64,000 bases of DNA, taken from assembly GCF_003334255.1 (NCBI RefSeq), contig NZ_QOWU01000002.1; one strand, given 5' to 3'. A program made the position numbers and the translations under genes. Numbering within the stretch: position 1 is the first letter of the stretch; each line of letters starts with the position of its first letter. Of this stretch, positions 58,193-60,974 are shown one piece after another. Source of the stretch: Escherichia coli. Its GTDB lineage: Bacteria > Pseudomonadota > Gammaproteobacteria > Enterobacterales > Enterobacteriaceae. The notes under the pieces were generated by a model that saw nothing but the letters and a program-made list of their open reading frames with translations, was not told where the DNA came from and searched no databases.

Positions 58193-58208
58193 GCAGATAA
58201 TTTACTCT

Positions 58209-58454
58209 CTACGTAATCAACCTGATTTGCCGAATCACGGCCATCGGCGATGATAGCCCCCGTAATGCGTGGTCCTTATTTCCGATAAGTTTACTTGAGT
58301 CTTTAGCTTCCCATTTCAGCCCACTCTCCCCTGTGTGGGCTTTTTTCATTGGTCTGCCCCATCCTGAATAGCCAAACAATGGCAATGTTCCACTTTGCAG
58401 GGATGATAATAAGGGGATCTGATTCAGAAGAGTTTTGAAAAGTTGGACCGCCAT
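58209..58454 (-). CDS. yahM: small uncharacterised protein (candidate YahM)
   Basis: ORF 58209..58484 trimmed to internal ATG (MAVQLFKTLLNQ...), 81 aa, gagg upstream; assignment by position and length only. Confidence 0.45.
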   Translation of the reverse strand: MAVQLFKTLLNQIPLLSSLQSGTLPLFGYSGWGRPMKKAHTGESGLKWEAKDSSKLIGNKDHALRGLSSPMAVIRQIRLIT

Positions 58455-58866
58455 CGAGGCCTCGAACCCCGTACCATACAACAATCCTGGTTGTCGTCTG
58501 CTCTTCCTGATGAGCTAATGGCGGTTTTTGATATGAGCCTTACAGCATATTTTCTGTCAGGCTTGAGTGCGATGCGTAAGATACAGAAAAGACCCCACAC
58601 AAACATGATGGAATTATGATTTTTTTCATATGAATGTCAACCAACACATTCACAAAACATCTGCATGAGATCATTTTTTATACACCGCATGGCTGCGAAA
58701 CCACTACTGGTGCTTTTTTAAGCGAAGTGTCGCCGATCACAACAAAATATCGGCGAAAAAAGAGATGGAATGCCAGTTGGCATACAGATATACAGATGAA
58801 ATGATTACCTGCATTGCGATTCACTCTCAGGTGGAATAACAACTTGCAGGTGGAACCCTTTCTGAA

Positions 58867-59682
58867 CTAAAGAGTGTAGCGGATTTTAACGTGCTTATTT
58901 ACAGGATAATATCTGTCACCTAATTCCTGCACTCTATTAGATATCCATTCATTTAATCGCGCATCATCTCTGTATGTTTTTACGTCCAGAACAGAGAGCA
59001 ATAACATCACCAGTGATTCAGGAAAAACAGGGTAGATATTTTTTAAGTGTAATAATAATCCATGCGCAAGCGCCTGCTTAATGGGCGCGTCTGTCTCCGG
59101 AATAGACGACATTTCGCGAAGCCATTTTTCCACATGCATACACTCTTTCCCTTTAGGGAAAATTCTCAGCAAAGGCATATGGTATTCAAGAAGAATACAT
59201 TTGCAATCTGTTCGCACTGAATCGATAAACTGCACTAATTTCTTAAGCCCGGTAAAGCGTCCAGCCTGCACGTTTGCTTTAATATCAAGAAACGCATCAT
59301 CCTGGTCATATACCCAAACTGTCCCTTTTTGATTTTCAAGTATGTGAAAAACAAACTTAACCGGGTGATCAGGGTAATCCATCCAGTCATAAAATCCAGG
59401 GAAATCATTAAACTGCACATTTATGGTGAGTGCGTTATCGTCTGACCACTCACAGTCTCGTACGGCAGCCATGAGATGAATGAGTTTGTCGTCATCGACT
59501 AAATCATCACGACAATCATAAGGATAATCATAATATTGTTTAATCAAAACCTTGAATATATCGACACAGGAAACCAGGGAGCTTTTGATATCCTCTGGTA
59601 ACTGATTGTTTTTAACCGTATTAAGTATGCTTTGTTGCGTATATGGCATCAAATTATTGTGCGGAGCTTTTAATGATATCAT
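58867..59682 (-). CDS. yahL: uncharacterised protein YahL
   Basis: 271 aa ORF in an AT-rich segment; no recognisable motif. Confidence 0.7.
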   Translation of the reverse strand: MISLKAPHNNLMPYTQQSILNTVKNNQLPEDIKSSLVSCVDIFKVLIKQYYDYPYDCRDDLVDDDKLIHLMAAVRDCEWSDDNALTINVQFNDFPGFYDWMDYPDHPVKFVFHILENQKGTVWVYDQDDAFLDIKANVQAGRFTGLKKLVQFIDSVRTDCKCILLEYHMPLLRIFPKGKECMHVEKWLREMSSIPETDAPIKQALAHGLLLHLKNIYPVFPESLVMLLLSVLDVKTYRDDARLNEWISNRVQELGDRYYPVNKHVKIRYTL

Positions 59683-59924
59683 CGCGATCTCTCTTAAATA
59701 AAAATAAACGTCGCAGATAATAAAGCTCTGATTAAACCAGGCACTATCAGAAATCGCTCATAACTAACGTGTGAAGTATTGTGTACTGGAGGGCGTTAAT
59801 TTAACAATTTAAATTTACGTTATAGGTTTTACTGCTACTTTGATATTATTTCGCTCTCCTTAACTAAAAAGTTAAGTGGAGAGCGAAGTTAATATGTTAA
59901 ACCACAGGGTATTTATTAATTTTT

Positions 59925-60974
59925 TCAGTCTGTTAGTGTGCGATTATCGATAACAAAACGATATTTCACATCACCGCGCAGCATTCGCTCATAGGCTTCA
60001 TTAATTTGATCGGCCCGAATCATCTCTATATCAGCCACGATGCCATGTTCGGCGCAAAAATCGAGCATCTCCTGAGTTTCTGGAATGCCGCCAATCATAG
60101 AACCGGCTATCGCACGGCGTTTCATGATCAGGTTGAAAACTTCCGGCGATTTATGCGGTGTCGCAGGCGCACCAACCAGCGTCATGGTGCCATCACGCTT
60201 CAGCAAGGTGGTAAAATCGTCGAGATTATGTGGCGCAGCTACTGTATTCAAAATGAAATCGAAACTCTTCAGATGAGCCGCCATCTCATCGGCATTGCGT
60301 GAGTTAACAACTTCATCGGCCCCCAGGGCTTTTGCCGCTTCGCGTTTTGCCTCAGAAGTGGTAAATGCCACCACATGTGCCCCCATCGCGTGGGCCAGCT
60401 TAATCCCCATATGTCCCAGACCGCCGATGCCGACCACGCCCACTTTTTTACCCGGCCCGGCCTGCCAGTGACGTAGCGGCGAATACGTGGTGATCCCTGC
60501 ACACAACAAAGGAGCCACCGCCGCCAGCTGCTCTTGCGGGTGACGAATACGCAGAACATATCGCTCATGAACGACGATCTGTTGTGAGTAGCCGCCCAGA
60601 GTATGGCCCGGTTCGTCCGGCGTCGGCGAGTTATAGGTGCCGGTCATGTGATCACAGTAGTTTTCCAACCCGTCTTCACACTCTTCGCAATGTTTACAAC
60701 TGTCGACAATGCAGCCGACACCGACCAGATCGCCCGGCGCATATTTTTCTACCTGATCACCAACGGCTACCACACGCCCCACAATTTCATGACCCGGCAC
60801 GCAGGGGTAAACCGTCCCCGCCCACTCGGAACGGACCTGGTGGAGATCGGAATGGCAAACGCCACAGTAAGCGATTTCGATTTTGACATCATTCGGTCCC
60901 GGTTCACGCCGGGTGATATCCATCGGTTCAAGTGGTTGTTTAGCGGAATATGCACCAACAGCTTTGATCTTCAT
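59925..60974 (-). CDS. yahK: NADPH-dependent aldehyde reductase (zinc alcohol dehydrogenase family)
   Basis: 349 aa with GHEIVGRV zinc-ADH signature and GIGGLGH Rossmann motif. Confidence 0.9.
   Translation of the reverse strand: MKIKAVGAYSAKQPLEPMDITRREPGPNDVKIEIAYCGVCHSDLHQVRSEWAGTVYPCVPGHEIVGRVVAVGDQVEKYAPGDLVGVGCIVDSCKHCEECEDGLENYCDHMTGTYNSPTPDEPGHTLGGYSQQIVVHERYVLRIRHPQEQLAAVAPLLCAGITTYSPLRHWQAGPGKKVGVVGIGGLGHMGIKLAHAMGAHVVAFTTSEAKREAAKALGADEVVNSRNADEMAAHLKSFDFILNTVAAPHNLDDFTTLLKRDGTMTLVGAPATPHKSPEVFNLIMKRRAIAGSMIGGIPETQEMLDFCAEHGIVADIEMIRADQINEAYERMLRGDVKYRFVIDNRTLTD

Follow-up and report, generated by a model that had tools for sequence, protein, structure and literature searches.

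The segment between yahN and yahK in a 64,000-nt stretch of Escherichia coli DNA (contig NZ_QOWU01000002.1; the whole stretch is referred to below as the window) carries the annotated genes yahM and yahL. We consider it likely that this segment is a composite of AT-rich DNA that was acquired long ago at a synteny breakpoint 3′ of yahN and has been passed on vertically in Escherichia ever since. The segment would consist of three parts, namely the xtpA unit, yahL, and AT-rich regulatory spacers, and its unusual composition would have an ordinary explanation, old xenogeneic DNA. The genes themselves are already annotated in K-12; the new material comprises a deletion allele of yahL, remote paralogues of YahL, the probable non-coding status of yahM, and an apparent constraint on xtpA at the RNA level.

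Composition and history of the segment

According to the map of open reading frames (ORFs) and to family searches, the window is K-12-like DNA in reverse orientation. The genes yahM (58209-58454, annotated as an 81-aa ORF), yahL (58867-59682, 271 aa), and yahK (59925-60974) all lie on the minus strand, with spacers of 412 bp between yahM and yahL and 242 bp between yahL and yahK. This layout agrees with an earlier description made from the letters alone (the sequence-only reading), which had given the same two protein lengths and spacers of about 400 and 240 bp. The same description had placed both genes in AT-rich DNA. The guanine plus cytosine (GC) contents support this for yahL (0.388; 0.39 at third codon positions) and for the yahM-yahL and yahL-yahK spacers (0.425 and 0.322, respectively), but not for yahM, the value of which (0.467) is near that of yahN (0.494). 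For comparison, the GC content is 0.533 for yahK and 0.520 for the whole window, and the block 58455-59924, with 0.388, is among the lowest 1.2% of the windows of the same length within the 64 kb. Codon usage sets yahL apart from its surroundings as well: its codon adaptation index, self-referenced in that it rests on the 41 long ORFs of the window itself, is the lowest of these 41 (0.532 versus a mean of 0.678, z = −3.1).

The DNA downstream of yahN differs between relatives. Citrobacter and S. bongori have kept the order prpBCD-prpR-yahO-yahN and have unrelated genes directly after yahN. Within Escherichia, the homology of the E. albertii locus (L008) and of the locus of another divergent lineage (L010) with the window stops at about position 58662, and therefore the downstream end of yahN appears to be a long-standing breakpoint that has gathered foreign DNA. 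In L010, a type I Zorya system (ZorA, B, C, D; locus positions 7955-14633) follows the xtpA block and replaces yahL-yahK, and an 878-aa AIDA-like autotransporter is found between yahO and yahN (4231-6867); the Zorya system bears on the site and not on YahL. The end of yahN would thus be a hotspot of variable content in Escherichia, occupied by yahL-yahK, Zorya, or adhesin genes depending on the lineage. Because the block with xtpA and its tRNA-like element occurs in E. albertii and in L010, both of which lack yahL at this site, yahM and yahL do not form a single unit. The lineage alignment shows a variable AT-rich spacer (58663-58866) that separates the xtpA promoter from the yahL stop codon.

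yahL, its deletion allele, and its remote paralogues

Judged by its pattern of substitutions, yahL is a genuine coding gene that is under purifying selection; its family is an orphan one restricted to Escherichia. Two divergent alleles, P0003 and P0004, with amino acid identities of 87% and 79%, are present at the same yahK/yahN-flanked locus in Escherichia lineages diverged by 6-14%, in which the flanks match the window at about 94% and 86-90% identity. In comparison with these two alleles, the ratio of nonsynonymous to synonymous divergence (dN/dS) of yahL is 0.20 and 0.17, and 24/13/45 and 31/26/83 substitutions fall on codon positions 1/2/3, with an excess at third positions. The frame of 271 codons is intact, ungapped, and free of stops across the compared lineages, up to a dS of 0.67. 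The dS values of yahL (0.32 and 0.67) are comparable to those of the flanking genes yahK, yahN, yahO, and prpR (0.16-0.25 and 0.34-0.72), and therefore yahL has co-diverged with its neighbors since before these lineages split. The dN of yahL, in turn, is 4-10 times that of the same four genes.

Altogether, 4,076 of 5,426 complete E. coli genomes contain yahL, and its flanks are found in 5,238, so that the locus is not universal; the absence of the gene from the remaining 1,350 genomes (about 25%) is mostly due to one deletion allele. In a strain of serotype O6:K2:H1, exactly the interval 58854-59688 is missing, which is 835 bp long and extends beyond the ORF by 13 bp at the 3′ end and by 6 bp at the 5′ end. 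No repeat was found at the deletion junction. The identical junction is present in 1,073 genomes, including those of S88 and BEN2908, which we take to be phylogroup B2 strains. Because the empty allele retains the 5′ untranslated region (5′-UTR) and the 3′ spacer of yahL, and because outgroup lineages carry the gene, a single shared deletion is more parsimonious than repeated insertion. Thus, the polymorphism of yahL within E. coli would parsimoniously be put down mainly to one clean 835-bp deletion allele.

The sequence-only reading had seen no recognizable motif in YahL or YahM, and database searches led to the same result. No family in NCBIfam, PADLOC, or PHROGs matched YahL below an E value of 0.1, none of the PADLOC defence models matched YahL or YahM at E ≤ 1, Pfam yielded no match for YahL or the five-member alignment of the YahL family, and searches of PDB sequences with the single YahL protein and with a profile were equally negative. 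No YahL relative was detected in phage records by tblastn or in viral contigs by a scan for peptide patterns, and the plasmid matches turned out to be F-prime plasmids or chromosomes filed as plasmids. A word-index search of 5.8 billion clusters retrieved nothing but E. coli alleles of YahL and fragments that are artefacts; among the retrieved sequences, P0009 and P0010 carry frameshifts or are chimeras. The sequences that cluster with YahL include 6,040 full-length proteins and a few hundred truncated ones, among them P0006-P0008. A distant relationship to DUF2686 was rejected, since the hhalign probability with the DUF2686 protein of L002 was 0.06% and Pfam gave no match. The DUF2686 proteins YjfZ and YjiC are further E. 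coli-restricted proteins of about 270 aa.

Two remote paralogues could be identified. When 1.84 billion representatives were searched exhaustively with a profile, the family gained a single member, P0025, a protein of 275 aa that is 24% identical to YahL (blastp E value 1e-18). In one E. coli strain, its gene opens a rare AT-rich island (L002, 7400-16828) that is inserted at yjiG/yjiH and is adjoined by an IS256 fragment. The order is yjiG, P0025, an IatC-like inverse autotransporter of 1,350 aa, a SicA-like chaperone of type III secretion systems (T3SS), and a translocon gene of the SseC family; we take this arrangement to recall the eip/air locus. The second paralogue is an ORF of 188-208 aa between yahO and yahN of E. 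albertii (L008, 6163-6789), which the profile search had missed because its profile of three sequences was too narrow. With YahL, this ORF shares the N-terminal part of approximately 160 residues (hhalign probability 95.7%, E value 1e-8; blastp E value 1e-10) and lacks the C-terminal helical region. Neither paralogue was found in any of the 5,426 complete E. coli genomes or in the phage and viral collections searched. At the usual site, E. albertii has neither yahK nor yahL; of the hairpin that lies 3′ of yahK, a remnant of 52 bp persists there. In the window, this conserved hairpin is located at 59850-59887 on the minus strand; it resembles a terminator without a U-run, and it shows a compensatory change in the lineage L007.

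Structure prediction with AlphaFold2 gave a predicted local distance difference test (pLDDT) score of 46 with an alignment of three sequences, and of 55, with a predicted template modeling (pTM) score of 0.59, when four sequences were used. In the latter model, the N-terminal part of YahL is an alpha/beta region and the C-terminal part is helical, and the approximately 160 residues of the N-terminal region are the portion common to all three paralogue lineages. Foldseek searches of AFDB50 retrieved YahL itself only, and another fold search returned generic helical repeats; thus, no confident fold was assigned. The isoelectric point of YahL is 5.7, and inspection by eye revealed no signal or membrane segment, so that the protein is predicted to be cytoplasmic. 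Expression of YahL below 1 part per million (ppm) and a fitness effect that was reported without explanation have been described (bioRxiv 10.1101/038851). The literature also lists a predicted CRP site at yahL and peaks inside the gene for RNA polymerase with several sigma factors, obtained by systematic evolution of ligands by exponential enrichment (SELEX).

Upstream of yahL, a conserved segment at 59700-59761 (minus strand) in the 5′-UTR is kept in the yahL-less allele and also recurs 5′ of the E. albertii paralogue, where about 60 nt are 78% identical to it. It contains a mini-ORF of 4-5 codons, ATGAGCGATTTCTGA, and an inverted repeat, TCTGAT...ATCAGA, and both have counterparts 5′ of the E. 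albertii ORF. The mini-ORF and the repeat could be a regulatory element.

The xtpA unit, the tRNA-like element, and yahM

The sequence-only reading had described the DNA between yahM and yahL as an AT-rich intergenic spacer. However, it harbors xtpA, a transfer RNA (tRNA)-like element, and a near-consensus promoter. xtpA (b4845; 58424-58606, minus strand) is a 60-aa ORF on a putatively leaderless messenger RNA (mRNA), and the RefSeq annotation of K-12 lists the same ORF at 345252-345434. A leaderless xtpA mRNA with a tRNA-like sequence has been described (Muto et al., 2022, J Biochem 171:459, as cited in RegulonDB v12, PMC10767902). The gene and its tRNA-like element are thus already in the databases and the literature, and the possibility that the element is a previously unrecognized RNA was discarded, because it is annotated as part of xtpA.

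The element was called by ARAGORN at 58444-58524 on the minus strand (81 nt) and likewise at five other Escherichia loci. Its predicted fold is a cloverleaf in which acceptor, D, and T arms as well as a 3′ CCA are present, with a minimum free energy of −30.8 kcal/mol. The anticodon arm is abnormal in that it has a stem of 7 bp and a loop of 6 nt (CCAGGA) and not the canonical 5-bp stem with a 7-nt loop, and the element remained unmatched by the tRNA model of Rfam (RF00005) even at E ≤ 10. Its conservation is very high: 92-93 of the 93 nt at 58441-58533 are identical in five Escherichia lineages, including E. albertii, and about 5,150 of the 5,426 genomes contain the element at an identity of at least 99%. 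The adjacent 73 nt are only 82-88% identical to the three most divergent lineages, L004, L008, and L010, and the E. albertii flanks in this region are about 80% identical to the window.

The XtpA ORF is intact in E. coli and in L007. In L004, L008 (E. albertii), and L010 it is interrupted by a stop at codon 4, and the tRNA-like nucleotides are unchanged in all three. In addition, the substitutions in the 5′ part of the ORF are distributed evenly over the codon positions. Because the ORF is broken while the tRNA-like nucleotides are kept, and because of this even distribution, the constraint seems to act on the nucleic acid and not on the XtpA peptide, at least outside of E. coli proper. These comparisons suggest that the xtpA locus has been selected as RNA rather than as peptide.

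A sigma-70 promoter, TTGACA-16-CATAAT, is predicted at 58613-58640 on the minus strand; its hexamers match the consensus at 11 of 12 positions, and it is conserved across the lineages. Its geometry would place the transcription start on the A of the xtpA ATG (58606). Transcription from this promoter would hence yield the leaderless mRNA, which would carry the tRNA-like element and would continue through the yahM ORF, most likely without translation of a conserved YahM protein. In a massively parallel reporter study, an active "yahM promoter" that is repressed by the integration host factor was reported (bioRxiv 10.1101/2025.05.13.653802), and we infer that this promoter is that of xtpA.

The tRNA-like element has relatives in phages. 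It is homologous to the argN-type tRNAs of lambdoid and Shiga toxin (Stx) phages, with identities of 75-85% over 78-88% of its length in 247 phage records, and the acceptor, D, and T arms can be aligned column by column with those of argN in PhiR49_2 and TL-2011c as well as of a plasmid-borne tRNA-Arg(UCU). In the phages phiP27 and mEp460 (L018, 2501-2582, and L019, 2501-2588), the position of argN between ileZ and argO is taken by a copy whose anticodon arm is enlarged in a similar way. This copy is unannotated and degenerate, is not called by ARAGORN, and differs from the E. coli chromosomal copy by a compensatory stem change. Viral contigs contained no exact match to the 35-mer that spans the chromosomal anticodon arm, and the remainder of 58193-59924 had no match to phage DNA. 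From the alignments, the element appears to derive from an argN-type tRNA-Arg of a lambdoid phage. Maintenance by gene conversion from phage copies was considered and rejected, because these copies differ by 15-25%.

All nine substitutions between yahM and its counterpart in L007 are non-synonymous (dS 0), and the substitutions at codon positions 1/2/3 (4/5/0, 7/9/7, and 19/21/19 in three comparisons) reveal no excess at third positions. L001, L004, and L008 have indels that disrupt the frame, the RefSeq record of a B2 strain has yahM frameshifted, and in L010 the body of the gene (58228-58434) is deleted. The ATG of yahM lies within the 3′ acceptor strand of the tRNA-like element, and its end is 16 nt from the yahN stop codon, antisense to the 3′ end of yahN. 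About 130 nt 3′ of the yahN stop, and antisense within yahM, a terminator-like hairpin with the sequence GCCCAC-N10-GTGGGC followed by T6 is present (58319-58346, plus strand). It was read directly from the sequence, a pattern scan having overlooked it because of its 10-nt loop, and it is conserved in all Escherichia lineages that retain the segment. It looks like the terminator of yahN; yahM and yahN have been listed as a convergent excludon (PMC12288877). Taken together, yahM is probably not a conserved protein-coding gene and would instead represent the 3′ part of the xtpA transcript. It is, therefore, a candidate for removal from protein catalogues.

At lower positions of the window, yahM is preceded by prpB (54286-55176, minus strand), prpR (55403-57001, plus), yahO (57099-57374, minus), and yahN (57521-58192, plus), and past yahK follow yahJ and yahI, both on the minus strand. 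yahN is annotated with 223 aa (start region 57521-57559). Nearly all of its orthologues have 210 aa, and matches to family models begin at residues 20-33; the true start is probably the ATG at 57560. Repeats of the repetitive extragenic palindrome and bacterial interspersed mosaic element (REP/BIME) type that match the Rfam family naRNA4 are located at 63792-63861 and 63885-63954, 3′ of yahI, where the two copies score above the gathering threshold, and a weaker copy lies between prpR and yahO (56962-57035). Several other regions of the window contain 1-kb windows with a GC content below 0.43 (minimum 0.36), namely about 4750-6250, 11500-12750, 13750-16000, and 20000-21750; they are at least as AT-rich as the yahL block.

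Alternative explanations and comparison with known systems

The sequence-only reading had proposed that yahM and yahL form a horizontally acquired insert within the yah cluster. If they were a discrete and recent insert into a pre-existing cluster, the absence of yahL would be the ancestral state, and the low GC content, the poor codon adaptation, the absence of yahL from about one quarter of the complete genomes with nearly universal flanks, and the lack of homologues outside of Escherichia would all be in line with this. However, yahL has the same position and boundaries in lineages diverged by 6-14% and a dS like that of its flanks, the yahL-less allele looks like the product of an ORF deletion, lineages without yahL at this site still contain the xtpA/tRNA-like block, and mobility genes and repeats were not found. 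Among the features by which recent islands are recognized, a deviant composition and codon usage were thus observed, but neither mobility genes or repeats nor a divergence discordant with the flanks. We regard a recent insert as very unlikely. The broader part of the proposal stands, in that a foreign origin is plausible in view of the composition, the restriction to Escherichia, the synteny break, and the apparently phage-derived element. Even less credible is the view that yahL is a decaying relic without function or a spurious ORF. Its clean loss in 1,073 genomes without replacement, the truncated variants, the lack of a known domain, and the expression below 1 ppm would fit a relic, but the dN/dS of 0.17-0.20, the strong third-position excess, the intact frame, and the large majority of full-length sequences speak for a maintained protein.

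More serious, although still unlikely in our view, is an origin or diversification of yahL in situ, in which case its AT-richness would result from intergenic-like DNA or from relaxed selection and not from foreign DNA. The family is known only from Escherichia, the gene has an elevated dN and a very low expression, and between paralogues the 5′-UTR is better conserved than the coding sequence. On the other hand, three paralogues with an identity of about 24% at three AT-rich sites, one of them an IS256-flanked island with adhesin and T3SS genes, point to an older pool of mobile genes, and the synteny break and the phage-derived neighbor favor foreign DNA at this site. Several points nevertheless weigh against an old composite of foreign DNA. 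No mobility gene, integrase, transposase ORF, or border repeat marks the segment among the ORFs of the window or at the deletion junction, and only the tRNA-like element has a foreign relative that can be demonstrated by sequence comparison. For yahL, the case for a foreign origin consists of composition and taxonomic restriction, which an in-situ origin or fast evolution could also explain. Furthermore, the Escherichia comparison left out E. fergusonii, and the predicted model of YahL is poor, so that its fold supports no functional inference.

With an old, vertically inherited composite as the preferred explanation, yahL would encode a real, weakly expressed cytoplasmic protein that evolves fast yet under purifying selection and may normally be silenced owing to its AT-rich DNA. 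A possible extension, which we put forward tentatively, is that the selected unit of the spacer is an RNA from a phage argN-type tRNA that was domesticated in the ancestor of Escherichia, received its own consensus promoter, and was kept free of nucleotide changes on account of its structure, acting for instance as a processed tRNA-like RNA or as a decoy for a tRNA-binding factor, and that the 60-aa peptide is a later overprint in E. coli; as a separate matter, YahL, P0025, and the E. albertii ORF would be an unrecognized Escherichia-only family that moves between AT-rich islets. It is doubtful whether YahL is a silenced, non-enzymatic accessory protein with a binding or regulatory role, possibly related to conflict and dispensable in many lineages.

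A practical comparison is offered by the use of yahL as a universal marker for E. coli and Shigella in quantitative polymerase chain reaction (qPCR) assays (PMC11057252). Our results agree with this marker as far as the restriction of close homologues to E. coli/Shigella-like genomes is concerned. They differ in that yahL is not universal, 1,350 of 5,426 genomes lacking it, and in that remote paralogues exist. The primers bind at about 58983-59094, and the amplicon lies within the 835-bp deleted interval; such assays would therefore under-count E. coli, missing about one quarter of the complete genomes, including those of well-known extraintestinal pathogenic strains.

In enterobacterial chromosomes, AT-rich xenogeneic islets with orphan "y" genes are typically silenced by H-NS. 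The segment resembles such islets in its low GC content, poor codon adaptation, taxonomic restriction, very low expression, and the promiscuous SELEX peaks in yahL. It is unlike them in that it has no mobility genes and is old, co-diverging with its flanks, and a role of H-NS would be assumed here by analogy.

The tRNA-like element, in turn, can be compared to the ileZ-argN-argO cluster located 3′ of the antiterminator gene Q in phages. Its acceptor, D, and T arms and its CCA end are almost the same as in phage argN-type genes. However, the chromosomal element is solitary, has its own predicted sigma-70 promoter, and lacks Q, ileZ, argO, and lysis genes in its vicinity; unlike argN, it has no arginine anticodon and a different anticodon loop. 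With the locus described by Muto et al., as far as it is represented in RegulonDB, the coordinates of the ORF, the embedded tRNA-like sequence, and the promoter geometry, which predicts a leaderless transcript, agree, so that both descriptions concern the same xtpA. The two differ in emphasis: the title of that study credits the function to the peptide, whereas in three of the lineages compared here the ORF stops at codon 4 and the nucleotides of the tRNA-like element are invariant.

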